Below, piece after piece: positions 22,267 to 45,147 of a stretch of DNA of 64,000 nucleotides. Each line of letters begins with the position of its first letter. Within the stretch, counting starts at the first letter, position 1. The stretch covers positions 8,687 through 72,686 of the forward strand of contig JAUXTN010000147.1 in assembly GCA_030684355.1 (NCBI GenBank). Reading direction: 5' to 3'. The position numbers were made by a program, and so were the translations under genes. This DNA is from Pseudomonadota bacterium (GTDB taxonomy: Bacteria; Myxococcota_A; UBA796; SXON01). Under the pieces are notes generated by a model, which saw only the letters and a list, made by a program, of their open reading frames with translations, did not search any database and was not told the origin of the DNA.

Positions 22267-22304
22267 CGGCTGCCCGGTTTGGGGGGATGGGCGGTGGGGT
22301 GCGC

Positions 22305-22333
22305 GGTTTACGACGCCGGGGGGGCGCTGTCAA
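22305..22333 (-). promoter_or_regulatory. Candidate internal promoter in the nuoI-nuoJ gap
   Basis: The minus strand reads TTGACA-N17-TAAACC, inside the only sizeable (94-nt) intergenic gap of the nuo cluster. Confidence 0.25.
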
Positions 22334-22360
22334 CGCGTGCGGAGGAGGGCGTGCTCGTCG

Positions 22361-22927
22361 CTACGCGACAGGCTTCTCGTCGAACGTGTAGCCGGCGGGC
22401 GCCTGCTCGGGATGGGCCCGGTAGACGTCCTCCGCCTCGGGCTTCAAGCCGTCCATGAGGTTGATCATGTACGACTTGTTGTGGACCATGTCCTGCCGGG
22501 TGTAGGCGTTGATCTCGTAGATCTTCGTGTCCATCCGGATGGCGTCCTTCGGGCACGCCTCGACACAGAAGCCGCAGAAGATGCAGCGCAGCATGTCGAT
22601 GTCGAACTCGATGGGGAACTTCTCGGCCGGGTCGTCCGCGGCCTCGCCGGCGATGATCGTGATGCACTTGGCCGGGCAGATCGTCGGGCAGCACATGCAC
22701 GCGACGCACTTGACCTTGCCGTCGGGGCGGGTCGTTAGCCGGTGGGCGCCCCGGTAGCGCGCCGCCATGGGCTTGCGCATGTCCGGGTATTCGATGGTGC
22801 GGAAGCGGTCCTGGTCGAGGATGTTCTTGATGACGTGCGACATCGTCAGGAACATCCCCTTGATCACCTCGACGAGGTAGACCGACTCAGGGGTCGACAG
22901 CTTCTTTCTTGGCGCGGGGAGAGCCAT
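22361..22927 (-). CDS. nuoI: NADH-quinone oxidoreductase subunit I (2x[4Fe-4S])
   Basis: Start re-set to ATG 22927 (MALPAPRKK). Two ferredoxin motifs are present: CVACMCCPTICP and CIFCGFCVEACP. Confidence 0.94.
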   Translation of the reverse strand: MALPAPRKKLSTPESVYLVEVIKGMFLTMSHVIKNILDQDRFRTIEYPDMRKPMAARYRGAHRLTTRPDGKVKCVACMCCPTICPAKCITIIAGEAADDPAEKFPIEFDIDMLRCIFCGFCVEACPKDAIRMDTKIYEINAYTRQDMVHNKSYMINLMDGLKPEAEDVYRAHPEQAPAGYTFDEKPVA

Positions 22928-22941
22928 AGCGGCGGACCTCT

Positions 22942-24279: not shown

Positions 24280-25859
24280 GTCGATGCCTCCGCGCCGGGG
24301 ACGGCGGTGACGGCTTCGGGCGCCAGCAGGCGGCCCTCGGCACCCAGGCCCTTGAATTCCAGGCCGCGCATGCGCTCGACCGCGCGCGCCATGCCGTTGA
24401 AGGCGGCGGCCACCATCTGCGTGCCCGGGGCCTTGCCGAGGCGCGCGCCGAGGCGATCCACGACGACGTAGGCGGGAGCGGACTCACCGACGGGGTTCAC
24501 CGCGCGGCGCACGCGCTGCACGCGATCCTGGCGGTTGATGTAGCTGCCGTCCTGCTCGACCGGGTGAGCGGTCGGGACGACGATCGCCGCCGCCTGGGCA
24601 GTCGCGTTCTTGAAGGCCCCGAAGAAGACGACCGGCGGCAGGGCTGCGCCGAGGCGCCCCAGCACGTCGTCTTCGAGGACCACGAGGAGCTTGAGCTCCG
24701 GGAGCGCGGCGAGGAGCGCGAGACGATCCCCCACGTTGCCGTCGTGGCGCGCCAGGAGGCGGGCTCCGGCGGTGTTGGGGTTGCGGTCCCCGGAGAGGAG
24801 GAGGGTGTCACCCTGCGCGGCCTGACCGCCGTCGTTGCCCTCGACCACGAAGATCCGGGCCCCGGGCACGTTGGCGCGCACCATCTGCAGGAGCGCCCAA
24901 TTCGCCTCGTTCGTGGCGCGGGTCCCGAGCACGAACCCCACGCCCGCGGCGCCGGCGGCGCGGATGCGCGTGGCGATCTCGCCGGTGGCGACATCGGGCT
25001 CGACGGCCTTGCCGTCCACCGAGGCCTTCAAGATGCGCTTCAGCCCGGCGATCTCCTGGTAGGAGAGCCGACCCATGTCACACATCCAGGACTTGTTCAC
25101 CTGGTCGTTGCGGCGCGGGAGGTAACGGAACACCTCCCCTTCCTGGTGGCAGACCTGGATGTTGCAGCCGGTCGCGCAGCCGGTGCACACGCTCGCGGTC
25201 TCCTTCAGGTACCAGACGCGGCGCTGGAACCGGAAGTCCTTGTTGGTGAGCGCCCCGACGGGACAAATGTCCGCCAGGTTGCCCTGGTAGTTGTGGGAGA
25301 GACGGTCACCGGGGAACATGCCGATCTCGGTGTGGTCCCCGCGGTTCATGAGGCGAAGCTCACCGGTGCCGGTCACCTCGTCTCCGAAGCGCTCGCAACG
25401 GCTGCACTGCACGCAGCGCTCGGCGTCGAGGACGATGAGATCCCCGATGTCCTGGCGCTTGTTCTTCCCGACCTTGGGGTCGAGGCCGCGCGAGTCGTAC
25501 TGGCCGTGCTCCATGTAGTAGTCCTGGAGGCGGCACTCACCCGACTGGTCGCAGATCGGACAGTCGAGCGGGTGGTTCACCAGCAGGAACTCCATCACCG
25601 ACTTGCGCATGTGCAAGACCTGCGCGGTGTCGGTGCGGATGGCCAGGCCGTCCCGCGCCTGCATGTTGCAGGCGATCTCGAGCACCGGGCCGCGCGGCGT
25701 GGTCGTCTCGACCAGGCACATGCGGCAGTTGCCCGCGATCGAGAGGTGGGGGTGGTAGCAGTAGTGGGGGATCTCCTCCCCCGCCAACTTGGCCGCCTCG
25801 ATCATGTTGGTCCCGTTGGGGACCTCGATCTCGGTGTCGTTGATCTTGACCTTTGCCAT
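24276..25859 (-). CDS. nuoG: NADH-quinone oxidoreductase subunit G (short form, 527 aa)
   Basis: Fe-S motifs CRMCLV, HPLDCPICDQSGECRLQD, CVQCSRCERF and CPVGALT. The molybdopterin-like part is much shorter than in the E. coli or Thermus subunits. Confidence 0.92.
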   Translation of the reverse strand: MAKVKINDTEIEVPNGTNMIEAAKLAGEEIPHYCYHPHLSIAGNCRMCLVETTTPRGPVLEIACNMQARDGLAIRTDTAQVLHMRKSVMEFLLVNHPLDCPICDQSGECRLQDYYMEHGQYDSRGLDPKVGKNKRQDIGDLIVLDAERCVQCSRCERFGDEVTGTGELRLMNRGDHTEIGMFPGDRLSHNYQGNLADICPVGALTNKDFRFQRRVWYLKETASVCTGCATGCNIQVCHQEGEVFRYLPRRNDQVNKSWMCDMGRLSYQEIAGLKRILKASVDGKAVEPDVATGEIATRIRAAGAAGVGFVLGTRATNEANWALLQMVRANVPGARIFVVEGNDGGQAAQGDTLLLSGDRNPNTAGARLLARHDGNVGDRLALLAALPELKLLVVLEDDVLGRLGAALPPVVFFGAFKNATAQAAAIVVPTAHPVEQDGSYINRQDRVQRVRRAVNPVGESAPAYVVVDRLGARLGKAPGTQMVAAAFNGMARAVERMRGLEFKGLGAEGRLLAPEAVTAVPGAEAST

Positions 25860-25862
25860 GAC

Positions 25863-27176
25863 CTACGCTCCGGCGCTCGGGATGGGGGCGCTCGCCATGA
25901 CGGTCACCGCGGCCGCGGGTCGTTGGACCCGCTCGAGGAACTCGTCACGGAACTTGGTGAGGAAGCTCTGCACCGGCATCGCGGCGCTGGCGCCGAAGAA
26001 GCAGATGGTCTTGCTGTGGATGTTGTCGGCGAGGTCGCGGAGGGTACCGAGGTCCTCGGGGGTCGCGTAGCCGTCACGCACGCGGCAGAGGATCTGGTAC
26101 ATCCACCCGCAACCTTCGCGGCAGGGGGTGCACTGCCCGCAGCTCTCGTGCGCGTAGAAGCGCAGGAGGTTCGTCAGGGCGGCGACCATGTCGGTCGTCT
26201 CGTCCATGACGATGAACCCGCCGGAGCCGAGGTACGAGCCCGCGTTCTGGTTGATGGACTCGTAGTCCATCGAGCACAGGTCGACCTCGGCCGCGGTCAT
26301 CACCGGGACGGAGGAGCCGCCGGGGATGATGGCCTTGAGCTTCTTGCCGCCCCTCACGCCGCCGCAGACCTCGTCGAGGAACTGCCGCATCGGCATCCCC
26401 ATCGGGATCTCGTAGACGCCGGGCTTGTTGACGTGCCCGGAGACCGAGAAGAGCTTGGTGCCCGGGGCCTTCTCGGTGCCGAGGGCCTTGTAGGCGGCGG
26501 CGCCGTGCTCGAGGATCCAGGGGACCGCCGCGAGGGTCTCGACGTTGTTCACGACCGTCGGGGCCTTCCATGCGCCCTCGACCGCCGGGAACGGGGGCTT
26601 CAGCTTGGGCTGGCCCTTCTCGCCCTCGAGGCTCGAGATGAGCGCGGTCTCTTCGCCGCAGATGTAGGCGCCGGCCCCGAGGTGCACGTGCAGGTCGAAG
26701 TCGAAGCCGCTGCCGAGGATGTTCTTCCCGAGCAGGCCGGCCTTGTAGGCCTCGGCCACGGCCTCGTCCAGGCGCGCCTGGATGAACCGGAACTCACCAC
26801 GGATGTAGATGTAGGCGGTGTGGCAGTCGAGCGCCCAGGCCGCGATGATCATGCCCTCGATCAGCAGGTGCGGATCGAGCCACATGCAGTAGCGATCCTT
26901 GAACGTGCCGGGCTCGGACTCGTCCGCGTTGCAGAGGAGGTACACGGGCTTGTCGCCACGCTTCTCCTTCGACGGCACGAAGCTCCACTTCATGCCCGTA
27001 GGGAAACCGGCGCCGCCACGCCCACGAAGCCCCGAGTCCTTGACCACTTGCGTGATGTCGGCGGGCTTCATGGCGAGCGCGGGCGCGACGCGGGAGTAGA
27101 CCCCGCGGCTGCGTGCGACTTCGAGGGTGTGCGAACCGGGAACGTCCCAGTTCGCGCTCAGGATCTTGGGGCCCAT
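25863..27176 (-). CDS. nuoF: NADH-quinone oxidoreductase subunit F
   Basis: Start re-set to ATG 27176 (MGPKILSANW). GLRGRGGAGFPTGMKW is the FMN/NADH site. ESCGQCTPCREG is the N3 cluster motif. Confidence 0.96.
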   Translation of the reverse strand: MGPKILSANWDVPGSHTLEVARSRGVYSRVAPALAMKPADITQVVKDSGLRGRGGAGFPTGMKWSFVPSKEKRGDKPVYLLCNADESEPGTFKDRYCMWLDPHLLIEGMIIAAWALDCHTAYIYIRGEFRFIQARLDEAVAEAYKAGLLGKNILGSGFDFDLHVHLGAGAYICGEETALISSLEGEKGQPKLKPPFPAVEGAWKAPTVVNNVETLAAVPWILEHGAAAYKALGTEKAPGTKLFSVSGHVNKPGVYEIPMGMPMRQFLDEVCGGVRGGKKLKAIIPGGSSVPVMTAAEVDLCSMDYESINQNAGSYLGSGGFIVMDETTDMVAALTNLLRFYAHESCGQCTPCREGCGWMYQILCRVRDGYATPEDLGTLRDLADNIHSKTICFFGASAAMPVQSFLTKFRDEFLERVQRPAAAVTVMASAPIPSAGA

Positions 27177-27730
27177 TGCCACTCGTTGGCCTCGGGACGA
27201 GGCGTGGGAAGCGGGTTGCCACTGCGCAGACCGGAGACGATCTGGTCGACCGACTCGGGGGTCAGGAACTCGTAGAAGTGGTCGTTGACCTGCATCATCG
27301 GCCCGGAGCCGCACGACGCGAGGCACTCCACCTTGTGGAGCGTGAAGAGGCCATCCTTGCTGTTGCCGTAGGCGTCCGGCTCCAGGATGCGCTCGAGGTG
27401 CGCGATGATGCCCTCCGCGCCGACGAGGTTGCAGGACAGGGTCTGGCACACGTCGATGACGTAGCGACCGGTCGGCACCTTCTTGAACATCGTGTAGAAG
27501 CTGGCGACGGCGTGCACGTGGCTCGGCGGGATCGACAACGTGCGCGCCACCAGCCGCATCACGTCGAGATCCAGCCAACCGAAGTCGTCCTGCGCCAGCC
27601 AGAGCACGGGCATGATCGCGCCCTGCTTGGTCGGGTACTTGGCCAGGATCACCTGGATCTTGGCCAACTGTTCCGGGGACCACTCACGGGGGCCGCGAGA
27701 GGGATGATGTGCAACGGCGCCGTGGCTCAT
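27158..27730 (-). CDS. nuoE: NADH-quinone oxidoreductase subunit E
   Basis: Start ATG 27730, forming an ATGA overlap with the nuoD stop. The 2Fe-2S motifs are CQTLSCNLVGA and ECLASCGSGPMMQV. The 3' end overlaps nuoF by 19 nt. Confidence 0.93.
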   Translation of the reverse strand: MSHGAVAHHPSRGPREWSPEQLAKIQVILAKYPTKQGAIMPVLWLAQDDFGWLDLDVMRLVARTLSIPPSHVHAVASFYTMFKKVPTGRYVIDVCQTLSCNLVGAEGIIAHLERILEPDAYGNSKDGLFTLHKVECLASCGSGPMMQVNDHFYEFLTPESVDQIVSGLRSGNPLPTPRPEANEWQWAPRS

Positions 27731-28941
27731 CGGTCCAGCTCCCCTGCGATGACGTTGATCGAGCCGAGGGCTGCCACGGCGTCGGCGACCATGCCGCCCG
27801 TGATGATCTTCGGGAACACCGAGTAGTTGGCGAAGCAGGGCGGCCGGATGCGCACCCGCCAGGCGGACGGGCTCCCGTCCGACACGATGTAGAAGCCGAG
27901 CTCGCCGCAGCCACCCTCGGTGGCCGAGTAGATCTCGCCCTTGGGCGGCCGGATGCCGTGCATGATCAACTTGAAGTGGTTGATCAGGCCTTCCATCGTG
28001 TTGTAGACCTTGTCCTTGGGCGGCAGGGCCACGAGGTGGTCGTCCACCATGACGGGGCCGCCCGGGATGCTCGCGACCGCCTGCTTGATGATGCGGACGC
28101 TCTGCTCCATCTCGCGGAAGCGCACGATGGTGCGGTCGTAGGTGTCGCCACCCTCGCCCGTCGGGATGTCGAAGTCGTACTTCTCGTAGCCCCAGTACGG
28201 CTGCGCCTTGCGCACGTCGTAGGGGATGCCGGCCGCGCGGAGGCAGGGGCCGGTCACCGAGTGCTGGATCGCCAGCTCCTTGGTGATGGCACCGACGCCG
28301 ATCGTCCGGTCCATGAAGATGCGGTTGCGCTCGACGAGGCTCCGCACGTCTCCGACGGCCTCGCCCATCTCGTCGATGACCTTGATGAGGCTCTCGAACC
28401 ACCCGTCCGGAGCGTCCATCGCGACGCCGCCGATGCGCGGGTAGTTGACCATCATGCGGGCGCCCGTGAGCTCCTCGTAGAGGTCGTAGATCTTCTCCCG
28501 GTAGTTGTACATGTACCAGAAGTTGGTGAGCGCCCCGATATCCACGAGGTTGGTGCCGATGCACACCGCGTGGTCGATGATGCGCCCCATCTCGCTCGTG
28601 ATGACCCGGAGCGCCTGGGCGCGGGCGGGGACCTCGATGCCGAGGAGCTGCTCGCAGGCGTGACACCACGCGTTCGAGTTGTTGACCGGCCCCATGTAGT
28701 TGAGGCGCTCGGCGTAGGGGATCACCAGTTGGTAGAAGGTGCTCTCCGCCTGCTTCTCATACCCGCGGTGCAGGTACCCGATCTCGGCGCCGCAGTTCAC
28801 GATGGTCTCGCCGTCCAGCTGGAGCTGGAGGCGCAACGTGCCGTGGGTCGCCGGGTGAGCGGGGCCGATGTTGATCGTCAGCAGCTCGGTCGGGATCGGC
28901 TGGACGTGCGTGCCAGGCCCGCCTTGATCAAGTCGCTTCAT
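27727..28941 (-). CDS. nuoD: NADH-quinone oxidoreductase subunit D
   Basis: Start ATG 28941 (MKRLDQGG), forming an ATGA overlap with the nuoC stop. Contains NIGPAHPATHGTLRLQLQLDGE and YLHRGYEK motifs. Confidence 0.96.
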   Translation of the reverse strand: MKRLDQGGPGTHVQPIPTELLTINIGPAHPATHGTLRLQLQLDGETIVNCGAEIGYLHRGYEKQAESTFYQLVIPYAERLNYMGPVNNSNAWCHACEQLLGIEVPARAQALRVITSEMGRIIDHAVCIGTNLVDIGALTNFWYMYNYREKIYDLYEELTGARMMVNYPRIGGVAMDAPDGWFESLIKVIDEMGEAVGDVRSLVERNRIFMDRTIGVGAITKELAIQHSVTGPCLRAAGIPYDVRKAQPYWGYEKYDFDIPTGEGGDTYDRTIVRFREMEQSVRIIKQAVASIPGGPVMVDDHLVALPPKDKVYNTMEGLINHFKLIMHGIRPPKGEIYSATEGGCGELGFYIVSDGSPSAWRVRIRPPCFANYSVFPKIITGGMVADAVAALGSINVIAGELDR

Positions 28942-29471
28942 GCCCACTCCACCTTCTCGCAGAGGATCATCTCCGAGGGCTGCGAGAGCTTCTGCCGCTT
29001 GTTGATCGGGTAGTCCTTGCGGAGCGCGTGGCCGACGAACTCGTCGTGGCAGAGGATGCGGCGCAGGTTCGGGTGCCCGGTGAACCGGATGCCGAACATG
29101 TCCCAGACCTCGCGCTCTTCCCAGTTGGCGATCGCCCAGAGGTCCCACACCGAGGGGATCTCGACGGTCTCGTCGCGTACGGCCACCTTCACGCGGAAGC
29201 GGTGGTTCTTGCCCATGCTGTAGAGCTGGTAGGCGACCTCGAAGCGCCAGTCGCGCTCGTCCTCGTCACTGCCGTAGCCGAGGTAGTCGACGCCCCCCAC
29301 GTCCATAAGCCAGTCCATCTGGGTCTCCTGGTCGTCCCGAAGGAACAGCAGGAGCTCCCGGAGGGTCTCCGGAGCGATGGTCACCGCGGTCTGCCCGCGG
29401 AACGTGTACTCGGCCAATACCCGAGCGCCGAAGCGCTCCTTGACCCGGGCGAGAATGTCGGACTCGTTCAC
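28938..29471 (-). CDS. nuoC: NADH-quinone oxidoreductase subunit C
   Basis: WAIANWEEREVWDMFGIRFTGHPNLRRIL motif. Confidence 0.94.
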   Translation of the reverse strand: MNESDILARVKERFGARVLAEYTFRGQTAVTIAPETLRELLLFLRDDQETQMDWLMDVGGVDYLGYGSDEDERDWRFEVAYQLYSMGKNHRFRVKVAVRDETVEIPSVWDLWAIANWEEREVWDMFGIRFTGHPNLRRILCHDEFVGHALRKDYPINKRQKLSQPSEMILCEKVEWA

Positions 29472-29484
29472 CGCTCCCTCCCTC

Positions 29485-29964
29485 TCACCGCCAATCGGCG
29501 GCTTTCTCGGTGGAGATCTTCTCCATGATCTTCACAATCGCCCCGAGCACGTTCTCCGGCCGCGGCGGGCAGCCAGCCACGTACACGTCGACCGGGATGA
29601 TCTCGTCGATGCCCTGGACCACGGAGTAGTTGTCGTAGAAGCCGCCGGAGCTCGCGCAGGCGCCCATGGACACGACCCACTTGGGGTCTGGCATCTGGTC
29701 GTAGATCTGCTTCAAGACCGGCGCCTGCTTCTGCGTGATGGTGCCCATCACGAGCAGCAGATCGGCCTGGCGGGGCGAGAACCGCACGAGCTCCGCGCCG
29801 AAGCGCGACACGTCGAAGCGGCCCGACACCACGCCCATGAACTCGATCGCGCAGCACGCCGTCCCGAAGGGCATCGGCCACATCGAGTACTTCCGGCCCC
29901 AGTTGATCACCTCGTCGAGGCGCGTCGCGAGGAAGGGCTGGTTGACACTGGATTCTAGTCCCAT
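29485..29964 (-). CDS. nuoB: NADH-quinone oxidoreductase subunit B
   Basis: [17 protein letters not shown] and GCPPRPE are the N2-cluster ligand motifs. I prefer ATG 29964 (MGLESSV), which overlaps nuoA by 10 nt, over the track start at 29997. Confidence 0.94.
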
Positions 29965-30326
29965 TCGAGCGCTCCACGCTTCAGGCAGTACACCCACCCC
30001 AGGAAGAGGACGCCGAGGAAGGTGAACATCTCGACGAGCATGAACATCCCCTGGCCCTGGCGCACGAAGTCACGGAAGACGACGGACCAGGGGAAGAGGA
30101 ACACGGCCTCGAGATCGAAGAGAATGAACAAGACGGCCACGAGGTAGAACTTCACGCTGAACCGCTGGTGAGCGGGCGCGATGGAGGGCATGCCGCACTC
30201 GTAGAGCGACACCTTGGTGGCGTTCGGGCGCTGGGGCCCGAAGAACTTGCTCATCGCCACGAAAGCGAGGCTGAACACGATGGCGATGAGCAGCGACACC
30301 ATCACGGGGACGTAGGGATCCACCAC
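29955..30326 (-). CDS. nuoA: NADH-quinone oxidoreductase subunit A
   Basis: [39 protein letters not shown]. The start is GTG, preceded by GGAGG at 6-nt spacing. Confidence 0.93.
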
Positions 30327-30346
30327 CTCAGACCTCCGGGCCGGCC

Positions 30347-30375
30347 CGCATATCTCTGCGCGAGTACGGAGTCAA
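30347..30375 (-). promoter_or_regulatory. Candidate sigma-70-type promoter of the nuo operon
   Basis: The minus strand reads TTGACT-N17-TATGCG, about 10 nt upstream of the GGAGG SD of nuoA. The -10 element is poor. Confidence 0.3.
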
Positions 30376-30433
30376 CGGGCATGCTCTGCCCCCGCATGCA
30401 GCCGCGGTCCGTACCCCGTGGTACCCTCTCGGC

Positions 30434-31102
30434 ATGCGCATCCTGGGGCTCGACGAGGCAGGCCGTGGCTCGGTTCTGGGGCCCCTGGTCGTAGGCGGGT
30501 TTGTGTGGGAGGGGGACGACCAGGCCGCGCTCCGCGCCGCCGGCGCCGACGACTCGAAGGCGCTGTCGCACGCCCGCCGGGTGGAGGTCCGGGCCCGGCT
30601 CGCGGACATGGGGCGCGGTGTCGTTCGCGCGATCCAGGCAACCGCCATCGACGACGGCAACGTGAACCGCCTGGAAGAGGAGGCCTTCCTCGACCTCGTG
30701 CGGGCGGAGAAGCCCGACCGCGTCTACCTCGACGCCCCGGTGCACCCCGCCGGGATCCCGAAGCTGCGCGCCCGCCTCGTGGCGATGAGCGGCGTGGAGG
30801 ACTGGGTCGTCGAGTGCAAGGCCGACTCCACCTTCCCCGTCGTCGGCGCCGCGAGCATCTTCGCGAAGGTCGCGCGTGACGCCGCCATCGCCGCGATCGG
30901 CGTGATCACGGTGCAGGACGGCCACGGGCCCATCGGCAGCGGCTACCCCTCCGATCCGGTGACCCGCGCCTTCCTCTCGGGCCGCCTCGCCACCCCCGAT
31001 CCCCTCCCCGCCTTCGTCCGCACGCGGTGGGCAACGCTCGACATCCTCCGCCAGCAGGCGCTCTTCGGCGGTGCTGGCCCGGATCCGCTCCGCGATCGTT
31101 GA
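30434..31102 (+). CDS. rnhB: Ribonuclease HII
   Basis: MRILGLDEAGRGSVLGPLVV (DEAGRG motif) ... ADSTFPVVGAASIFAKVARD ... GSGYPSD. Confidence 0.93.
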   Translation: MRILGLDEAGRGSVLGPLVVGGFVWEGDDQAALRAAGADDSKALSHARRVEVRARLADMGRGVVRAIQATAIDDGNVNRLEEEAFLDLVRAEKPDRVYLDAPVHPAGIPKLRARLVAMSGVEDWVVECKADSTFPVVGAASIFAKVARDAAIAAIGVITVQDGHGPIGSGYPSDPVTRAFLSGRLATPDPLPAFVRTRWATLDILRQQALFGGAGPDPLRDR

Positions 31103-31136
31103 CAGCGGGCGGGAGCGGCGCGCATCCTCCGCCATC

Positions 31137-31616
31137 ATGCTTGCGCTCGCCCTCTCGTCCCTCCTCGGCTGCACCGGCAGCGTCGCCGACGACACCGCGC
31201 TCGACACCGCGCCCGTCGTCGCCACCGGCCCCGGCACCCTCGCCCTCTCCTTCCGGATGGACGACGACTACCTCGCCACCATGGCGAAGGCCGGGGAGAG
31301 CCCCGTCGGGCCCTTCTACGGCTCGTGCTTCAAGGAAGAGGACGCCTCGGCGACCGGCCCGGTCGACGGCGCGGTGCCGCTCTTCGACATCGAGGTCGCG
31401 CTCGACCTCTCCGCGGACGGCGGCCCGACCGGCGTGCTCTACACGACGGAGCCCCTCGAGCCGCAGATCGTCTGGATCCTCGGCTGCCTCGACGCGGATG
31501 CCAACGGCTGCGAAGAGGCCGATCCGATCACGCTCCCGAACGAGAACAAGTTCCAGATCGCCGCCGAGGCGGAGACCCCCATCGAGATCTACTTCGGAAT
31601 GTTGAACCCATCATGA
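31137..31616 (+). CDS. Small lipoprotein, unknown function (first gene of the Cu-monooxygenase operon)
   Basis: Start re-set to ATG 31137 (MLALALSSLLGC lipobox). The stop overlaps the next start as ATGA. No domain recognised. Confidence 0.7.
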   Translation: MLALALSSLLGCTGSVADDTALDTAPVVATGPGTLALSFRMDDDYLATMAKAGESPVGPFYGSCFKEEDASATGPVDGAVPLFDIEVALDLSADGGPTGVLYTTEPLEPQIVWILGCLDADANGCEEADPITLPNENKFQIAAEAETPIEIYFGMLNPS

Positions 31617-32572
31617 TCCTGGCCCTCCTCGCGGCGTGCGACAGCGACCTCCCCGCCACGGACGACACCGCCGCCGTCGACCTCCGTCTCACCGACGCCG
31701 ACTACCCCTCCCCCGCCGCGAACGAGGAGGTGTGGTTCGGGCCCGAGGTGACCATCGCCCCGGGCGCGGACGAGATGTGGTGCGTCGTCGGGACCTACAC
31801 GGGGCCGGACGTCGGCATCCACACCCAGGTCACCTACCAGAACGCGTTCGGGCACCACCTCGTGCTCATGGGCATGACCTCGAGCCCGCTCGATCACCCC
31901 GATGGCGAGGTCTTCGAGTGCACCACGTCGGACCAGTACTCGATGACCGACCTGGAGCCGCTCGTGCTCGCGACCTCCGGCTACGTCGGCGGCACGCAGC
32001 TGGAGAACGAGATCACCATGCCCGAGGGCATGGCGGTCAAGCTCGATAGCGGCCAGCGCTACCTCATCCAGGCGCACTACCTCAACACCGGGACCGAGCC
32101 CTTCGTGGCGCGGGATGCCTTGTTGATGGACTACCTCGACCCCGACACGGAGGTCGACGTGTGGGCGGCCCCGTTCGTGCTCAACAAGGACGACTTCTCC
32201 CTCCCGCCCGGCGAGGCGACCACGGCGTCCTTCGACTGCGAGGCCGAGGCCGATTGGAACGCGCTCTACCTCAACGCCCACATGCACGAGTGGGGGCGCT
32301 CCTTCACGCTCGAGCGCGTGTTGGAGGACGGGAACGAGCCCATCCTCGACATCCCGGAGTGGGACCCCTACTTCCGCGACGCGCCGCCGACCAACTACTA
32401 CGAACCCGGCGAATTCTGGATCCACCAGGGAGACGTGCTGCGGACCACGTGCAACTGGTTCAACGACACGGACGCGGTCATCGAGTTCCCGCACGAGATG
32501 TGCGACTCGGTCGGGCTGGTCTACCCCCAGCTCACGCCCGTAATCTGCAACGGCGGCGGAGCCTCCGAATGA
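31613..32572 (+). CDS. PHM/DBH-like type II copper monooxygenase lipoprotein, paralog 1
   Basis: Start ATG 31613 (MILALLAAC). The ordered motifs are FGHHLVLMG, IQAHYLN, NAHMHEWG and PHEMCDSVGLVY. They parallel the PHM CuH ligands (HH...H) and CuM ligands (HxH...M in an EMC context). Confidence 0.85.
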   Translation: MILALLAACDSDLPATDDTAAVDLRLTDADYPSPAANEEVWFGPEVTIAPGADEMWCVVGTYTGPDVGIHTQVTYQNAFGHHLVLMGMTSSPLDHPDGEVFECTTSDQYSMTDLEPLVLATSGYVGGTQLENEITMPEGMAVKLDSGQRYLIQAHYLNTGTEPFVARDALLMDYLDPDTEVDVWAAPFVLNKDDFSLPPGEATTASFDCEAEADWNALYLNAHMHEWGRSFTLERVLEDGNEPILDIPEWDPYFRDAPPTNYYEPGEFWIHQGDVLRTTCNWFNDTDAVIEFPHEMCDSVGLVYPQLTPVICNGGGASE

Positions 32573-33516
32573 TCACCCTCCTTCTCCTCGCCTGCGCTGC
32601 CGGCCCCACCTCCGACGGCACCCCTGTGGACGACACCGCTGTGGACGACGCCGTGGACCAGCGCCTCTCCTTCGCGGACGTGACCGCCGCCCCCGCCAAC
32701 GGGGAGCAGTGGTACGGCCCCGAGGCCGTGCTCGAGCCCGGAGAGGAGCTCCAGTACTGCCTCTTCGGCACGTATGACGGGCCGGACATCGGCATCTCCA
32801 CCTACGAGTCGTTCCAGTCGGAGATCGGCCACCACCTGATCCTGCTCGGGACCACCGCCTCCGACCTCGACTACCCCGACGGCACCGTGGTCGACTGCAC
32901 GCAGACCAACGACATGATGACCAGCTTCGAGCCGCTCATCAACGCGGAGCCCACCGGCGCCGGGAGCTCCTACATCAACCTGCCCGAGGGGATGGCGGTC
33001 AAGCTCGACCAGGGCCAGCGCTGGGTGGTCCAGGCACACTGGCTCAACTCCACCCCCGAGCGCGTGCGCGTCCGCGACGTGCTGAACATGGGGTACGTCG
33101 CCGAAGACGAGGTCGAGACGTGGGCCGCCGCCTTCGCGCTCACGCAGGTCGACCTCTCGCTCCCCCCGCAGCAGGCCTCGACGCTCACCTTCGATTGCAG
33201 CTTCCCGGCCGACTACAACCTGCTCTACCTGACCGGGCACATGCACGAGAACGGCGAGCGGTTCCGCTTCGAGCTCGGCGACGGCGCGACGATGGAGACC
33301 CTCTACGAGATCGAGGAGTGGGACCCCAGCTACCGCGACGCCCCTCCCCTCACCCACTTCGAGGCCGGCGAGCAGCCGTTCGCGGCGAACACGACGCTGC
33401 GGACGACGTGCGACTGGTACAACGCCACGGACGAGGCCATCGAGTTCCCCAACGAGATGTGCGCGACCTACGGCATGCTCTACCCCTCCCTGAACCCCGT
33501 CGTCTGCTCGGACTGA
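32569..33516 (+). CDS. PHM/DBH-like type II copper monooxygenase lipoprotein, paralog 2
   Basis: Start ATG 32569 (MITLLLLAC), forming an ATGA overlap. Motifs are IGHHLILLG, VQAHWLN, TGHMHENG and PNEMCATYGMLY. It is collinear with paralog 1 along its whole length. Confidence 0.85.
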   Translation: MITLLLLACAAGPTSDGTPVDDTAVDDAVDQRLSFADVTAAPANGEQWYGPEAVLEPGEELQYCLFGTYDGPDIGISTYESFQSEIGHHLILLGTTASDLDYPDGTVVDCTQTNDMMTSFEPLINAEPTGAGSSYINLPEGMAVKLDQGQRWVVQAHWLNSTPERVRVRDVLNMGYVAEDEVETWAAAFALTQVDLSLPPQQASTLTFDCSFPADYNLLYLTGHMHENGERFRFELGDGATMETLYEIEEWDPSYRDAPPLTHFEAGEQPFAANTTLRTTCDWYNATDEAIEFPNEMCATYGMLYPSLNPVVCSD

Positions 33517-33519
33517 ACG

Positions 33520-33915
33520 ATGCTGCTGCTCCTCTTCCTGGCCTGCGCGGGTGCTCCCGCCGATGACACCGGCGAACCCTCCCTCGAGCCCACGCTCACC
33601 AACGTACAGGCCGAGGTATTCACGGCCTCCTGCGCCTTCAGCTCCTGCCACGGCGGCAGCGGCGGCGGCGCGGCGGACCTCGACCTCACGGACGGCGTCT
33701 CCCACGCCGAGCTCGTCGGGATCGAGAGCACGGACGCCCCGGGCGAGATCCTCGTCGTCGCGGGGGACTCCGCGGCGAGCTACCTCGTGAAGAAGTCCGC
33801 GGCGCTGGCCGGGATCGTGGGCGAGCCCATGCCGGACGGAGACGCCGACGGCCTCGACGCCGACCGCCTCGCGCTGCTCACGGCGTGGATCGACGCGGGC
33901 GCACTCGACGACTGA
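33520..33915 (+). CDS. Small lipoprotein with planctomycete-cytochrome-c-like (PSCyt1-like) domain and a CX4CH motif
   Basis: MLLLLFLAC lipobox. VQAEVFTASCAFSSCHGGSGGGAADLDL ... ILVVAGDSAASYLV ... EPMP ... LALLTAWIDAGA follows the PSCyt1 pattern (C..CHG..gGL.L ... ivpG.p..S.l ... MP ... l..WI..GA). The Cys spacing is widened to C-x4-CH. Confidence 0.7.
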   Translation: MLLLLFLACAGAPADDTGEPSLEPTLTNVQAEVFTASCAFSSCHGGSGGGAADLDLTDGVSHAELVGIESTDAPGEILVVAGDSAASYLVKKSAALAGIVGEPMPDGDADGLDADRLALLTAWIDAGALDD

Positions 33916-33929
33916 GGGGCCCTCCCCTC
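33914..33929. terminator. Short GC hairpin in the 19-nt convergent gap (cytochrome-like lipoprotein / rnhA)
   Basis: gagggg-ccct-cccctc forms a 6-bp stem overlapping the TGA stop. There is no U-tract. Confidence 0.35.
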
Positions 33930-33934
33930 GTCGC

Positions 33935-34756
33935 TTAGCGCCGCTTGCTCTCGTCCACGCCCTTCCGGGCGAGGGCGTCCGCGCGCTCGTTCTCCGGCAC
34001 GCCGACGTGCCCGGCGACCCACTCGATCTTCAGGCGCTTCCAGGGCCGCAAGGCGGCCTTCAGCGACGCGATGAGCTCGACGTTCGCCTTCGCCTTCCAC
34101 CCCTTCGTGAGCACGCCGAGGGCGTACTGGGAGTCGGTATAGAGCGCGACGGGCGTCGAGGGATCGACGGCGTTCTCCGTCAGCAGATCCACCGCGAGTT
34201 GGATCGCGGTGAGCTCGCCGATGTTGTTCGTGCCGATGCCGAGCGCCGCGAAGCGCTCGAACACGCGCCCGTCCGGGAGCTTGACCACGGCGCCGCTGCC
34301 GGCCGGGCCGGGGTTGCCGGTGCAGGCCCCGTCGGTGAACGCCATGACCGTGCCCGTGGGGAGCGCCGCGATGCGGCCCTGGGCGTCGGTCGCGGCGGCT
34401 GCCGACTGGGCCGCGGTGCGCGTGCCCGCCTTCCCGAACCCGCTACCCCGCCCGTTCGTGCGCGCGGGGGCCCCCGGCGCGCTCGTGCCCGCGGCGCCAC
34501 GGGAGGCCCCATTGGAGGCCCCGCTGGAAGCCCCGGTGGTGGCCCCGGTGCTCGGCGCCGCCGGCGTCCCCGCGTCCAGGCCCCGGGGCGCGCCGCCCAG
34601 GTCCTTCACGGCGGAGGCCGCGGCCCGGTAGACCTTCGCGCCGGGAGCGTCGCTGTAGCGGATCCCGCGTCGGCCGTCGGCCGCGACCGGCCTCCCCGCA
34701 TCGTCCACCTCGGCCCACACCTTCGTGCCCTTGAAGTCCGCCTCGATCCAATTCAT
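33935..34756 (-). CDS. rnhA: Ribonuclease HI with ~130-aa N-terminal extension
   Basis: The C-terminal domain reads FTDGACTGNPGPAG, NNIGELTAI, LYTDSQYA and GHVGVPENERADALA, giving a DEDD active site. The N-terminal ~50-aa domain and an Ala/Gly/Ser/Thr linker are not the classical hybrid-binding domain. Confidence 0.9.
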   Translation of the reverse strand: MNWIEADFKGTKVWAEVDDAGRPVAADGRRGIRYSDAPGAKVYRAAASAVKDLGGAPRGLDAGTPAAPSTGATTGASSGASNGASRGAAGTSAPGAPARTNGRGSGFGKAGTRTAAQSAAAATDAQGRIAALPTGTVMAFTDGACTGNPGPAGSGAVVKLPDGRVFERFAALGIGTNNIGELTAIQLAVDLLTENAVDPSTPVALYTDSQYALGVLTKGWKAKANVELIASLKAALRPWKRLKIEWVAGHVGVPENERADALARKGVDESKRR

Positions 34757-36922
34757 CTAAGGTTCCACCCGATGCGTCTGTCCCGTCGACGCGACGAACT
34801 CGTACAGGCTGTGGTTGTAGCACCCGGCCGTACACCCCGATGTGTACAGCCCCTCGCGGTGCGCCTGGACCTCCGGCGAATACCACAGCTCGGTCAGCGG
34901 ACGTTCGAACACGTTGCCGACGCGCAGGCCATCCCCGCCCCACACACAACACGGGAGCAGGGCGCCGTCGTAGGTGACACCGAACTGATCGACGAGCCCC
35001 AGGCATCGCATCGGGACGCGCTCGCCGTCGTGGTAGCGCAGGGCCTCGCCGTAGTAGTGCGCGCGCGCGGCCACCTCGCGGTCGTGGCGCCCGATGTGGG
35101 CGACGGCGTCCCGCCAGGCCGCGCGATCGTCGTCGGTCTTGAGGTACAGGTCGGTCGCGTCGTTCACCGGCCAGAAGTCGAAGCCGGCGCCGACCCGCCG
35201 GACCTCCTCCCACACGGGCACGAGCTCCCGCACATTCGTGCGCGTCACGGTGAAGTAGACGTTGACACCCATCTTCCGCTCGTGGCGCACCCGGAGCAGC
35301 GCGCGCCACGTCCGCCCGTGCGCGCCCACCTGCCCCCGGAGGGCGTCGTGGGTGTCGGCGAGGCCGTCCACGCTCAACGACAGGCTGTCCACGCCGGCCG
35401 CGACGAGCGCGTCGTGGTGGCGCTCCACGAGGGTGCCGTTGGTCGTGATGTTCACGCCCATGCCGCGCTCCTTGGCGGCGCGGGCGATCGCGAAGATGCC
35501 GGGGTGCAACAGCGGCTCGCCGCCCGTGAGCACCACGGTGCGGGTGCCGATGGCGCGGGCCTCGTCGAGCAGGCGGATCGCGCGGTCGACCGGGATCTCC
35601 TCCTTGCGGTCCCACAGGTCGCAGAAGGAGCAGCGCAGGTTGCACCCGCGGTTCACGAGCAGGAGCATCGTGAGCGGCTTGCTCGGCTCCCGCGGCGGGA
35701 GGTGGGACTCGATGGAGGCGCGCGGCTCGAAGCGGGTCCGCTCGCCGCGATGCACCTGCCGGTAGGACGCGGTGACCGCGCTCCAGTCCCGAGCGCGCGC
35801 GTAGGCCCGTGCGGCGCGGCCGATGCGACGGCGCCGGTCGGGGTCGTCGAGGAGCGCGCGGACCGCGGCGGGGAAGGCCTCCCGCTCGGCGAACACGATG
35901 TGCTCGTCGTCGCGTACCTCGAGCCCCTCCGCGCCCACCGCCGTGGAGACGACCGGCTTCCCGGCCGCGAAGTACTCCAGGAGCTTCATGCGCGTGCCGC
36001 CGCCCGCGAAGATCGGGCACACGCACACGTCGGCGGCCTCGATGTGGGCAGGCAGGTCGTCGAGCGGGCCGGTGAAGCGCACCCGGTCGGACTCCAGGGC
36101 GCGCGGCGGCGACATCCCGGCCAGGAGCAGGGTGGCCTCGGGGGGCAAGCGCGGCGCGACCTCTTCGACGAGGAAGCGCACGGCGTCCGCGTTGGGGCCG
36201 TAGTGGAGCGTGCCGTGGAAGAACACGACCGGCCCCCCGCCGAGCCCGTAGCGCACGCGCAGATCGACGGGGCGGCCGCCGTAGGCCTCGACGTCGACGC
36301 CGTGGGGCACCACCGACACCCGCGCATCGGGCAGGCCCGCCGCGACGATCCGCCCGCGGTCCGCCTCGGAGACGGCCACCACGCCGTCCATCGCGCGGAG
36401 GAGCGCGACCTCGACCGCTCGGATGCGACGGAGCGCGCGCGCGGGGAGCCCCGCCATCTGCCCGAGCCGATCGAACTCGACGTTGTGCATGACGGCGACC
36501 GCGCGCCCGCCGAGCACGCGCGACGCGAGCCACGCGGGGGCGGCGTAGCCGGGGAACTCGGCCTGGTACACGTCGATGCGCTCGCGCACCCCCACGTAGA
36601 GGGCCCGGGCCCACCACGCGGGGTCGAACACCGGCCGGTAGAGGAAGTGCTCCTCGGGCGGGTAGCCGACGCGAGCGCACCAACGCTCGGCGCGGGCCCC
36701 GTTGCGTAGGAGAGGGGCCTCCTCGAACGCCCGGAACGTCTGCCCGAACGGAACGCGGCGCCACCCCGCGCGCGCCACGGCCCAGTAGGCGTCGCGATCG
36801 TCGGTGATCACGAACACGGTGTCCCCCGCCGCGGCGAGCGCCTCGGCGGTCCGGACGATCTTCACCGCGGCGCCGTGCCAGGTCGGGAACAGATCCCCGC
36901 GGGTCAGGAGAGCGATGCGCAC
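34757..36922 (-). CDS. Fusion protein: GT4-type glycosyltransferase plus radical SAM plus SPASM domain
   Basis: GTG start at 36922 (VRIALLTRGDLFPTWHGAAV), a typical GT4 N-terminus. The GT-B C-lobe is FFHGTLHYGPN...GGGTRMKLLEYFAAGKPVVST. The rSAM motif is LLLVNRGCNLRCSFCDLW. The SPASM-like Cys cluster is MRCLG...LLPCCVWGG...SGCTAGCYN. The track ORF's upstream extension to 37288 was rejected. Confidence 0.85.
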   Translation of the reverse strand: MRIALLTRGDLFPTWHGAAVKIVRTAEALAAAGDTVFVITDDRDAYWAVARAGWRRVPFGQTFRAFEEAPLLRNGARAERWCARVGYPPEEHFLYRPVFDPAWWARALYVGVRERIDVYQAEFPGYAAPAWLASRVLGGRAVAVMHNVEFDRLGQMAGLPARALRRIRAVEVALLRAMDGVVAVSEADRGRIVAAGLPDARVSVVPHGVDVEAYGGRPVDLRVRYGLGGGPVVFFHGTLHYGPNADAVRFLVEEVAPRLPPEATLLLAGMSPPRALESDRVRFTGPLDDLPAHIEAADVCVCPIFAGGGTRMKLLEYFAAGKPVVSTAVGAEGLEVRDDEHIVFAEREAFPAAVRALLDDPDRRRRIGRAARAYARARDWSAVTASYRQVHRGERTRFEPRASIESHLPPREPSKPLTMLLLVNRGCNLRCSFCDLWDRKEEIPVDRAIRLLDEARAIGTRTVVLTGGEPLLHPGIFAIARAAKERGMGVNITTNGTLVERHHDALVAAGVDSLSLSVDGLADTHDALRGQVGAHGRTWRALLRVRHERKMGVNVYFTVTRTNVRELVPVWEEVRRVGAGFDFWPVNDATDLYLKTDDDRAAWRDAVAHIGRHDREVAARAHYYGEALRYHDGERVPMRCLGLVDQFGVTYDGALLPCCVWGGDGLRVGNVFERPLTELWYSPEVQAHREGLYTSGCTAGCYNHSLYEFVASTGQTHRVEP

Positions 36923-36977
36923 CGCTCGAGTGTACCCCGGCGGCGGGTCGGGCCCGACTCCCGCTATACTCTCGGGT

Positions 36978-37799
36978 GTGTCAGCCTCGTCCCCACGCTT
37001 CGTCGTCCTCGGCGGTCCCGTCCCCGAGCGCCTCCGCGCCGATCTCTCCGGTGAGGTCGATCTCCTCGAGGGAGCCGACCTCGTCGATCCCGCGACGGAC
37101 GGCGTCCTCGTCCACGCGCACGCCGAGCTGTTTCCCGCCCTCCGCCGCTTTCGCGACGGGGGGGGCCGGCTACCGATCTTCGGGCTGGCCGAGGGCCCGG
37201 TCGACGTCGACCAGCGCATCCGTTGGATCCGGGAGGGCGCGGACGACCTCCTCGACCTGGAGACCGCCGCGGCGACCCTCTCCCGCAAGCTGCGCGCCGA
37301 GGTGTGGCGGCCTGCCGGTCGGCCGACGCCCCCGACCGAGAACCTGCCCGTGGCCGCCCGCGTCGATCGCTGGCTGACGGCGGCGGGCCGCTACCTGCCG
37401 GCGCGTGAGCTCCTCGTCGAAACCCTCGGCCTGGGCGGACGCAACCGCTACCTCGACTGTGCCTTCCTCCGCGATCAGCTCGTGCGCGCCGGGGACACCG
37501 ACGTCACCGCCGATGTGTTCGGGCAGCGCCGTGGCAGCGAGCGCGAGCCCCTGGGGTGGCCGGTGCAGCTCCTCGCGCCCATCGAGGGGGGCGGCGAGCT
37601 GCTCAACATCGGCGCGGACGGCGCGTGCATCTCGCTCCCGTCCGCCCCGGGCCCGGGCGAGCGCCTCCACGTGCGCATCGAGGGGACCAACGTGGCCGCC
37701 ACCATGGAGCTCGAGGTGCGCTGGCGCCGCCGCGTCTCGCGCGATCGGTGGCAGGTCGGCGCATTCGGGATCGCCTGCTCCGTCGCGCGGGACGTGTGA
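36978..37799 (+). CDS. Degenerate receiver-like domain plus PilZ domain protein
   Basis: GTG 36978 (VSASSPRFVVLGG...GADDLL is receiver-like but has no obvious phospho-acceptor Asp). The C-terminal RRGSEREPLGWPVQLL...LLNIGADGACISLP resembles the PilZ RxxxR / D-x-S-x-x-G elements. The start is uncertain. Confidence 0.55.
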   Translation: MSASSPRFVVLGGPVPERLRADLSGEVDLLEGADLVDPATDGVLVHAHAELFPALRRFRDGGGRLPIFGLAEGPVDVDQRIRWIREGADDLLDLETAAATLSRKLRAEVWRPAGRPTPPTENLPVAARVDRWLTAAGRYLPARELLVETLGLGGRNRYLDCAFLRDQLVRAGDTDVTADVFGQRRGSEREPLGWPVQLLAPIEGGGELLNIGADGACISLPSAPGPGERLHVRIEGTNVAATMELEVRWRRRVSRDRWQVGAFGIACSVARDV

Positions 37800-38813: not shown

Positions 38814-39521
38814 CTACCAGCCCACCGCCAGCAGGTACGACCGCCCGCAGTCCGCGTTCGCGATCGACTCGACCACGAGCTCGTAGGTCCCACCGTCGTC
38901 CTGGAAGCTCACGTCCTCCATCGTGAGCGTCAGGGTGTCGCTGCCGAACACCTGCGCCACCTCCTCGGCGGGGAGGTCCCCGTCGGAGGAGAGCCGGTTG
39001 AGCGTGAAGCGCCAGGTGGCGTCCTCCGGGATGCCGGAGAGCGTCATCGTCACGGTGAACAGGCTCCAGCCGCTGTCCGTCATGGTGAACGCGTAGCGGT
39101 CCACGTCGTCCTCGCCGGACAGCGTCGCGACGGCCGAGAGCTCGGGATCGTCGTCGAGGCCGCCCACGGACACGGCGGTGGCGTCGTTCGGCTCGTAGCC
39201 GTCCGGCGCGGCGTCCTCGTCGACGGCGTCGTCGCAGTCGTCGTCAACCGCGTTGCACACGTCCTCGGCGTCGGGGTGCACGGTGAGGTCGAAGTCGTCG
39301 CAGTCGCCCTGGGCCTCGGACCAGCCGTCGCCGTCGTCGTCGACCTCGAGGGGGTCGGGCGGCGCGGTGTCGTCGGTCTCCCCGGGGTCGGTGTCGGTCT
39401 CGGCGCCCCCGGTGTCGGTGTCCTCGGCGGTGTCGGCGCGGTCGTCGACGGCGGCGGTGTCGTCCACCACGACGCCCGTCGCGGCCGAGAAGTCGCATGC
39501 GAGCGCGAGGAGCAGGAGCAT
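38814..39521 (-). CDS. Acidic lipoprotein with MopE-like putative metal-binding motif and pre-peptidase-C-terminal-like domain
   Basis: Start ATG 39521 (MLLLLALAC). GDCDDFDLTVHPDAEDVCNAVDDDCDDAVDE resembles the myxobacterial putative metal-binding motif. EPNDATAVSVGGL...DVDRYAF is PPC-like. The rest of track ORF 38814..41447 was rejected. Confidence 0.75.
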   Translation of the reverse strand: MLLLLALACDFSAATGVVVDDTAAVDDRADTAEDTDTGGAETDTDPGETDDTAPPDPLEVDDDGDGWSEAQGDCDDFDLTVHPDAEDVCNAVDDDCDDAVDEDAAPDGYEPNDATAVSVGGLDDDPELSAVATLSGEDDVDRYAFTMTDSGWSLFTVTMTLSGIPEDATWRFTLNRLSSDGDLPAEEVAQVFGSDTLTLTMEDVSFQDDGGTYELVVESIANADCGRSYLLAVGW

Positions 39522-45073: not shown

Positions 45074-45084
45074 GTATGCATGGG

Positions 45085-45102: not shown

Positions 45103-45147
45103 AACGCCCCGCTCGAGCAGGGTTCGCGGCGGGCGGTCCGGTGCCTT

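Follow-up and report, generated by a model that had tools for sequence, protein, structure and literature searches.

In a 64-kb stretch of contig JAUXTN010000147.1 (assembly GCA_030684355.1), which we analysed as a whole and call the window, an uncultured freshwater Myxococcota bacterium carries an operon of four co-directional genes, here named g1 to g4 (31137-33915, plus strand). The two middle genes encode paralogous proteins that we assign with high confidence to the copper protein superfamily of peptidylglycine alpha-hydroxylating monooxygenase (PHM) and dopamine beta-monooxygenase (DBH), as distant members in which both predicted copper sites are conserved. The fourth gene encodes a protein with a c-type cytochrome fold, as judged from its family profile, and the first a predicted beta-sandwich. 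We suggest that the operon specifies a copper monooxygenase system of the cell envelope in which a dedicated cytochrome would take the place of ascorbate.

Relationship of g2 and g3 to PHM and DBH

A previous reading of this DNA, made from the sequence alone and referred to here as the sequence-only reading, described g2 and g3 as clear paralogs that carry the motifs GHH, QAH, HMH and EMC in the same order. Both statements are borne out, as the two proteins share 48% identity from end to end (E = 3e-98), and the translations place the four motifs at residues 80-82, 153-155, 223-225 and 295-297 of g2 and at residues 87-89, 155-157, 224-226 and 296-298 of g3. The predicted ligands of the CuH site are H81, H82 and H155 in g2, and H88, H89 (codons 32830-32835) and H157 (33037-33039) in g3; those of the CuM site are H223, H225 and M296 in g2, and H224, H226 (codons 33238-33246) and M297 (33457-33459) in g3. 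Their counterparts in PHM, in the established numbering, are H107, H108, Q170, H172, H242, H244 and M314, with Q170 corresponding to the glutamine of the QAH motif.

Searches with single sequences did not reveal this relationship: phmmer comparison of g2 and g3 with the PDB sequences returned nothing relevant, NCBIfam gave no match for either protein, and only the family profile reached PHM. This profile (A1), made from 66 of the 86 PHM-like clusters and including g2, finds the catalytic core of rat PHM (E = 7e-5), the match spanning profile positions 55-304, and also human DBH (E = 0.004). In the alignment between A1 and rat PHM, the HH, QxH, HxH and EMC motifs fall on VHHM, QVH, HTH and EMC, respectively, and the invariant columns of A1 include all six copper-ligand positions. 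The Pfam family Cu2_monoox_C (PF03712) is matched individually by 38 of the 66 members of A1 (E < 0.1), with a best E of 5e-8.

The predicted structure gives a concordant picture. The AlphaFold2 model of g3 (pLDDT 92.9, pTM 0.85) was compared with the PDB using Foldseek, and the top 31 matches are all PHM or DBH (E from 1e-14 to 1e-10, TM 0.55-0.67), with the next match at E = 3e-5 and TM 0.23; at the level of overall fold, the comparison with PHM that the sequence-only reading proposed is in favour of the relationship. We also considered a PNGase F-like, non-metal fold and rejected it, because the only significant fold matches were to PHM and DBH and all copper ligands are invariant.

To describe conservation we used an alignment of 216 full-length relatives pooled from two homolog searches. 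The six copper-ligand positions, whose variation among orthologs would have spoken against the assignment, are invariant in 216/216 sequences. Besides the lipobox Cys (g2 has seven cysteines, this one and six others), six cysteines are conserved in 213-216 of the 216 relatives. Five of them align with PHM C81, C126, C227, C293 and C315, while the sixth, C313, is past the end of the part that aligns, its assignment to PHM C334 being based on similar spacing; together they correspond to three of the five disulfides of PHM. The lipobox Cys itself is kept in 199 of the 216, and this, together with the other conserved cysteines, speaks for proteins that reside outside the cytoplasm in an oxidising compartment. 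The glutamine that corresponds to PHM Q170, Q155, is found in 177/216 relatives, and W251, R256 and N285 in 215, 191 and 207, respectively. The A1 profile, the modelled fold and the invariant ligands agree with the sequence-only reading that g2 and g3 are homologous to the PHM/DBH catalytic core and keep both copper sites, and we see little room for doubt that they are copper proteins of this superfamily, although distant ones.

Membership of the superfamily does not make g2 and g3 equivalents of either animal enzyme. PHM binds the carboxylate of peptidyl-glycine through R240, N316 and Y318, and in the 216 relatives the corresponding columns are variable (T/L/G/F, A/T/V/D and V/F/Y/A, respectively). 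Because the residues that bind peptidylglycine are not conserved, g2 and g3 are by this comparison not peptide amidases, or PHM proper, and a peptide substrate, which the sequence-only reading had allowed for, is not favoured. DBH is characterised by a DOMON domain, and Pfam finds none in g2 or g3, which at 315-319 aa have only about 30 residues before the core; because this domain is lacking, they would not be DBH-type proteins either.

The family is large and bacterial. Scanning with the A1 profile in HMMER, we found 4898 clusters (50% identity) at E <= 1e-3, a number that falls to 1996 at E <= 1e-10 and to 361 at E <= 1e-30, and the best 150 of the 4898 are bacterial lipoprotein-type proteins of about 300 aa, all unnamed. 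The description of this family as essentially eukaryotic was therefore too strong. Every named relative of the PHM-like proteins, of g4 or of g1 is a 'hypothetical protein', and the named PHM-like relatives come mostly from metagenome-assembled genomes (MAGs) of Myxococcota or 'Deltaproteobacteria'. A scan of species-representative genomes with a 14-sequence alignment returned close relatives only, at six loci, all in MAGs, and no cultured carrier of the family came to light. In the literature we found no characterised bacterial enzyme of the PHM/DBH type, which, as coverage was incomplete, is absence of evidence only; all characterised members known to us are eukaryotic and use ascorbate. The fold and the metal sites are known ones, and what would be new, as far as sequences can tell, is the electron-donor logic, the accessory module and the domain of life of the host.

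The partner proteins and their linkage to the PHM-like genes

The sequence-only reading described g4 as a cytochrome-like partner. This holds for the domain, which is c-type cytochrome-like by its PSCyt1 and FoxE profile matches; the haem-type motif is CX4CH and not CxxCH. The motif is C38-x4-C43-H44 (CAFSSCH, aa 38-44; nt 33631-33651), and it is followed by a Met-Pro pair, M104-P105 (nt 33829-33834). The g4 family comprises 69 clusters, and in an alignment of 46 sequences the lipobox Cys, C38, C43, H44, P105 and a C-terminal W...GA are invariant, with M104 present in at least 90%. PSCyt1 ('Planctomycete cytochrome C', PF07635) is matched by 30 of the 46 relatives, with a best E of 1.3e-7, and Cytochrome_CBB3 by 20. 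When the family profile was compared with the PDB, it matched the dihaem c-type cytochrome FoxE (5mab, E = 2.8e-5), and both FoxE haem domains align with the stretch that begins at the CH and ends at the C-terminal W-I-x-x-G-A, Met-Pro included. We conclude from these profile matches that g4 is a c-type cytochrome-fold domain of the PSCyt1/FoxE type with predicted His/Met ligation. Haem c sites of the CX4CH form exist, for example in the tetrahaem cytochromes c3, and haem binding by g4 is likely; we only infer its attachment, because the motif is CX4CH in place of CXXCH and the Pfam scores are below threshold.

The g1 family (44 clusters) is of a different nature. The AlphaFold2 model of g1 is an all-beta sandwich (pLDDT 89.5), and the protein has no Pfam family and no sequence match in the PDB. 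A fold search of the PDB with the model gave no significant match (best E 0.025), and the non-significant ones are to CnaB or pilin-type and to carbohydrate-binding-like sandwiches. Conserved in the family are the lipobox Cys, which is invariant, the pair C117/C125, and glycines, prolines and acidic residues, including an acidic loop (LDADANGC..DPIT). C117/C125 is the only conserved Cys pair apart from the lipobox and is absent from fused g1-like versions; g1 of the window has no histidine, and the family has no conserved Met. The sequence-only reading had offered g1 as a substrate or a copper chaperone, and it is unlikely to be either, since it is a confidently folded beta-sandwich, a domain found C-terminal to the enzyme in some relatives, and since it lacks His and a conserved Met and loses the Cys pair when fused. 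A resemblance of g1 to DUF2141 was considered, and Pfam did not confirm it.

The association of the three families is seen at several loci. The order rnhB, g1, PHM-like gene, g4 is kept in relatives, with rnhB 60-86% identical in L001 and L005-L011 (tblastn), and g1, one or two PHM-like genes and g4 occur in this order in L001, L005 and L008-L012. Both paralogs are present in L009, L010 and L011, the g3 type alone in L001/L007, L008 and L012, and the g2 type alone in L005, so that g2-type orthologs are known from L005, L009, L010 and L011. In the neighbour-joining tree the two types form old orthologous groups, and L014 branches before the duplication; for this reason the tandem pair is, on the evidence of the tree, ancestral in this clade and was then lost differentially. 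The two tandem enzymes of the sequence-only reading are thus real in the window but not obligatory, because the closest relative, L001 (g3 89% identical), has a single copy: g2 is cleanly missing there, and the junction between g1 and g3 is again ATGA (L001 6001-6004). The 5' ends of g2 and g3 are near-identical (leaders ATGAT..CTCCT..GC.TGC), and by recombination between them a copy could be removed or added precisely.

Linkage is also found away from this arrangement. In L014 a trio of g1, PHM-like gene and g4 lies in a different neighbourhood, with neither rnhB nor nuo genes and with g1 inverted. Apparent shared contigs, recognised as longest contigs of equal size, join 13 PHM-g4, 10 PHM-g1 and 10 g1-g4 cluster pairs. 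In the proteins P0197 and P0282, the latter from a Binatia MAG, a g4-like CX4CH domain directly precedes the PHM-like core on its N-terminal side, where the CuH domain lies (hhalign probability 99.1% and 99.6%, respectively), and in P0235/P0346 and P0290 a g1-like domain follows the CuM domain at the C-terminus. Both types of fusion, cytochrome-PHM and PHM-g1, are rare. The sequence-only reading had proposed a search for conserved synteny, and the synteny, the L014 trio and the fusions support, from sequence, a conserved module of g1, PHM-like protein and g4.

Other extensions of PHM-like proteins are not of these two types. The 445-aa 'fusion' P0164 has an Arg-rich tail that resembles an out-of-frame read-through, and we disregarded it. 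The C-terminal extensions of about 120 aa in P0203, P0207, P0216 and others were considered as g1-like and rejected (hhalign 15% for P0203); a genuine g1-like domain is confined to P0235/P0346 and P0290. The tail of P0203, P0207, P0216, P0220, P0225, P0231 and P0268 is beta-rich and not g1-like (P0203 being the one tested), and P0266, P0227 and P0273 have Cys-rich C-terminal tails of about 90-100 aa. The PHM-like family thus has several accessory-domain solutions. FG-GAP proteins (VCBS/ASPIC-type) occur beside or near PHM-like genes in L003 (6949-8202), L013 (6025-7056) and L014 (2671-4293), and the one that follows the PHM-like gene in L003 also has a MopE motif; a second MopE-motif protein is encoded slightly further downstream in L003 on the opposite strand. 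In L003 and L013 the FG-GAP proteins stand in place of g4 and are a possible alternative partner. The neighbours of distant members (L015 6378-7289, L014 1516-2628) gave no functional clue.

Gene layout, leaders and neighbourhood

The sequence-only reading had listed four consecutive plus-strand genes, each with a lipobox, joined by two ATGA overlaps and by a gap of 3 nt before g4; all of these are present in the sequence (Table 1), and the gap between g3 and g4 is at 33517-33519. The four are real genes and not chance open reading frames (ORFs), because the GC content at their third codon positions is 0.94-0.98 (window GC about 70%), they have homolog clusters at 90% identity (86 PHM-like, 69 for g4 and 44 for g1), and their synteny is conserved. 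The overlap between g1 and g2 suggests translational coupling. A search of the window for additional copies of g1 to g4 found none, no promoter or terminator predicted in 30200-34900 exceeded the shuffle expectation, and the 64-kb window holds no Rfam family and no tRNA.

Table 1. Coordinates of the operon, its junctions and the flanking genes in the window
Feature	Positions	Strand	Description
g1	31137-31616	+	159 aa; leader MLALALSSLLGC; lipobox LLGC, lipobox Cys12 (translation)
g2	31613-32572	+	319 aa; leader MILALLAAC; lipobox LAAC (translation)
g3	32569-33516	+	315 aa; leader MITLLLLAC; lipobox LLAC (translation)
g4	33520-33915	+	131 aa; leader MLLLLFLAC; lipobox FLAC (translation)
g1/g2 stop/start overlap	31613-31616	+	ATGA, read directly from sequence
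g2/g3 stop/start overlap	32569-32572	+	ATGA, read directly from sequence
rnhB (RNase HII), context gene	30434-31102	+	35 nt upstream of g1, co-directional; Pfam RNase_HII on the syntenic L001 and L005 genes
rnhA-like RNase H gene, context	33935-34756	-	convergent, 19 nt past g4; Pfam RNase_H on the syntenic L001 and L005 genes

The leaders of g1 to g4 are of an unusual form, with the Cys at position 9-12, 8-11 residues before it and no Lys or Arg. The lipoprotein rule (PROSITE PS51257) expects a positively charged n-region and the Cys at about position 15-35. A lipobox ending in Cys is present in all four proteins, and this Cys is invariant in the g4 and g1 alignments. A search for start codons further upstream, from which a canonical signal peptide could begin, found none that is conserved; for g4 a longer leader is impossible, as its ATG is preceded at a distance of two codons by an in-frame stop. 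Among PHM-like relatives the short form is found in 86/192 and a canonical leader in 83/192, 79 of these 83 with K or R, and the short K/R-free leader is by this comparison a lineage trait. The ultra-short form consists of Met, 7-10 hydrophobic residues and Cys (for example MVFLLMMLLGC and MLLLLALAC), and other ORFs of the window begin with such K/R-free leaders at 11979(-), 39521(-) and 62277(+).

With regard to the neighbourhood, rnhB is a conserved neighbour within the clade and lies outside the module, and the rnhA-like gene is a marker of the 3' end of the operon. Immediately upstream of rnhB and divergent from it is a nuo (complex I) cluster (21455-30326, minus strand), whose syntenic genes in L001 and L005 carry complex I Pfam families. 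Beyond the rnhA-like gene, at 34760-37000 (-), is a fusion protein of unusual architecture, with GT4/GT1 glycosyltransferase domains, radical SAM and SPASM, which is kept beside rnhA in L001 and L005. A second radical SAM/SPASM protein of 594 aa (45151-46932, minus strand) is located between large ORFs without a Pfam match (44267-47023 and 46863-49331). At 38817-39521 (-) is a 235-aa lipoprotein-like protein with a short leader and a putative metal-binding motif of the MopE type (PF11617, E = 2e-7), and L001 has a similar gene at the equivalent relative position. The MopE-motif proteins around PHM-like genes make a copper-related neighbourhood possible.

Proposed mechanism, alternatives and known systems

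PHM takes up electrons at CuH, which belongs to the N-terminal domain, and O2 is bound at the substrate-facing CuM site of the C-terminal domain. By analogy, the operon would encode a three-component, extracytoplasmic, membrane-anchored copper monooxygenase system, with all four proteins tethered to the membrane and facing the periplasm. The proteins g2 and g3 would be paralogous non-coupled binuclear copper enzymes. In each of them electrons would enter at the CuH site (His-His...His) of the N-terminal domain, and O2 and substrate would be activated at the CuM site (His-x-His...Met) of the C-terminal domain. In place of ascorbate, g4 would serve as a lipid-anchored monohaem c-type cytochrome with a CX4CH motif and His/Met ligation, and would pass single electrons to CuH. 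These electrons may come ultimately from the respiratory chain, a possible source because the proteins would be tethered to a membrane and face the periplasm. The protein g1 would most likely bind or present the substrate, or dock the complex, beside the CuM domain. One O atom from O2 would be inserted into a C-H bond of a periplasmic or envelope substrate, probably not a glycine-extended peptide, to yield an envelope or secreted molecule that carries a hydroxyl group or is oxidised further. The rare fusions are consistent with this arrangement, as a cytochrome domain fused on the CuH side fits reduction of CuH by ferrocytochrome g4, and g1 fused on the CuM side fits a substrate-binding, presenting or docking role.

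We infer that the proteins bind copper and haem, that they are lipidated, where they are located, in which direction electrons flow and that the chemistry is that of a hydroxylase, and for the statement as a whole, an envelope copper monooxygenase system with a dedicated cytochrome replacing ascorbate, we judge the balance to be slightly favourable. A more specific version, in which a bacterial PHM/DBH reaction is fed by the respiratory chain through the CX4CH cytochrome, g1 selects a substrate other than peptidylglycine (such as an envelope lipid, a glycan, a secreted metabolite or a protein side chain) and the paralogs provide two specificities, is offered tentatively, as one that could well prove wrong.

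Several results weigh against the proposed monooxygenase system. The Pfam check suggested by the sequence-only reading did not bring g2 and g3 themselves over the curated thresholds for Cu2_monooxygen and Cu2_monoox_C: g3 matches PF03712 with E = 0.011, its 15.6 bits falling short of the cut-off of 23, g2 gives no match, and PF01082 is matched by neither protein. The g4 motif is not CXXCH, as C-x4-C-H is invariant in 46/46 relatives and is found also in the fused versions, and g4 itself stays below the Pfam cut-offs, with weak matches to Cytochrome_CBB3 and Cytochrom_C. Those window proteins that were scanned include no product of a cytochrome c maturation gene and no copper chaperone, and we have no indication of the substrate and no candidate substrate gene in the operon. 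L003 and L013 have neither g1 nor g4, with an FG-GAP protein adjoining the PHM-like gene instead, which implies that the cytochrome is not a universal partner. Lastly, the leaders of g1 to g4 are too short and uncharged for a canonical lipoprotein signal peptide, and such leaders are the weakest link in the claim that these are lipoproteins.

Some of these points can be turned into other explanations. The PHM-like proteins might not hydroxylate C-H bonds at all and might instead be oxidases or reductases that depend on cytochrome c and reduce O2, peroxide, superoxide or nitrogen oxides, or copper-handling proteins that buffer periplasmic copper. The variability at the positions of the PHM substrate anchors R240, N316 and Y318, the lack of a candidate substrate gene, the recurrence of MopE-motif proteins nearby (L003, L001 and window 38817-39521), and the small anions bound at CuM in PHM structures (nitrite and azide complexes, 3mib and 3mic) would all fit such a role. 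We nevertheless consider it unlikely, because every one of the 216 relatives has all of the CuH and CuM ligands and 177/216 keep Q155, the PHM equivalent of which, Q170, has been implicated in the electron-transfer pathway. The conservation of W251, R256 and N285 suggests that the substrate has a defined pocket, a pair of diverged paralogs is easier to reconcile with two substrate specificities than with bulk buffering of copper, and every characterised member of the superfamily is, to our knowledge, a monooxygenase.

An alternative that concerns g4 alone is that it is not a haem protein, and that its Cys-x4-Cys-His and Met bind copper or another metal, or provide a redox-active dithiol; g4 would then be a metallochaperone or thiol-redox partner by which the copper sites are loaded or maintained, and the electrons would come from a small-molecule reductant. 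The departure from CXXCH, the sub-threshold Pfam scores and the lack of cytochrome c maturation genes in the window could be explained in this way, and Cys, His and Met are typical Cu(I) ligands. This is set against the matches of 30/46 relatives to PSCyt1 (best E 1.3e-7) and of 20 to Cytochrome_CBB3, the alignment of the profile with both haem domains of FoxE (E = 2.8e-5) with Met-Pro included, and the CX4CH haem sites of tetrahaem cytochromes c3, while the window is only part of the genome, so that missing maturation genes say little. We therefore regard a g4 without haem as quite improbable. It is far less credible still that the four genes are unrelated neighbouring lipoproteins carried along with rnhB and the nuo operon. 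Most loci do share one conserved neighbourhood (nuo-rnhB-cassette-rnhA), and their synteny may be partly simple inheritance, but the trio recurs in L014 away from rnhB and nuo and with g1 inverted, g4 with PHM and PHM with g1 have been fused independently, the ATGA overlaps indicate coupled translation, and the three families are of similar size and share contigs.

If the more specific version, fed by the respiratory chain, is right, this would be the first prokaryotic non-coupled binuclear copper monooxygenase system with a protein as its reductant. PHM and DBH, which make amidated hormones and noradrenaline in animals, are medically central, and the route of electrons into CuH and over the approximately 11 A on to CuM is still debated. 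The bacterial clade would offer a small, genetically simple model system of prokaryotic origin, with a defined protein electron donor, for electron entry at CuH and crossing to CuM. The hundreds to thousands of unannotated clusters would be evidence that the PHM/DBH class is widespread in uncultured bacteria, the module would point to oxidative modification in the bacterial envelope, and the results would allow three families of 'hypothetical proteins' to be annotated.

Among known systems, g2 and g3 are most readily compared with the PHM core of rat PAM (1PHM, 1SDW, 3MIC), with which they share a length of about 310 residues in two beta-sandwich domains, the HH...H and HxH...M ligand sets (separated by gaps of 68, 67 and 71 residues in g3 and 64, 70 and 70 in PHM), the Q-x-H and E-M-C contexts, equivalents of three of the five disulfides, and, by prediction, an oxidising extracytoplasmic compartment. 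They differ from it in being only 13-17% identical and below the Pfam thresholds, in not conserving R240, N316 and Y318, in having no PAL partner domain, in their predicted lipoprotein-type anchoring and bacterial origin, and in the association with a cytochrome c gene or fused domain where the animal enzyme uses ascorbate. The catalytic core is likewise shared with DBH, tyramine beta-monooxygenase and MOXD1 (4ZEL; Foldseek E = 1e-13, TM 0.67 on the query), and P0197 and P0282 resemble DBH in having an extra N-terminal domain before CuH; this domain is, however, a c-type cytochrome fold and not DOMON, and g2 and g3 (315-319 aa) have neither a DOMON nor a dimerisation domain, nor anything else that Pfam finds. 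By profile, g4 belongs to one domain family with PSCyt1 (PF07635) and FoxE (5MAB), as shown by the common CH...MP...W-I-x-x-G-A. PSCyt1 usually occurs at the N-terminus of large proteins of the DUF1549/DUF1553 type, whereas g4 is a stand-alone lipoprotein of 130 aa with an invariant CX4CH in place of CXXCH, and it appears to be dedicated to a copper enzyme. A purely functional analogy exists with lytic polysaccharide monooxygenases (LPMOs) and the cytochrome of cellobiose dehydrogenase, in which a secreted or extracytoplasmic copper monooxygenase also has a dedicated cytochrome protein or domain as reductant and is often combined with a beta-sandwich binding module. The LPMO system has an unrelated fold, a single histidine-brace copper site and haem b in a DOMON-like cytochrome, and it acts on polysaccharide, for which we have no evidence here, with g1 resembling binding or pilin-type sandwiches at non-significant scores only; what the two would have in common is the pairing of an extracytoplasmic copper monooxygenase with a cytochrome of its own.

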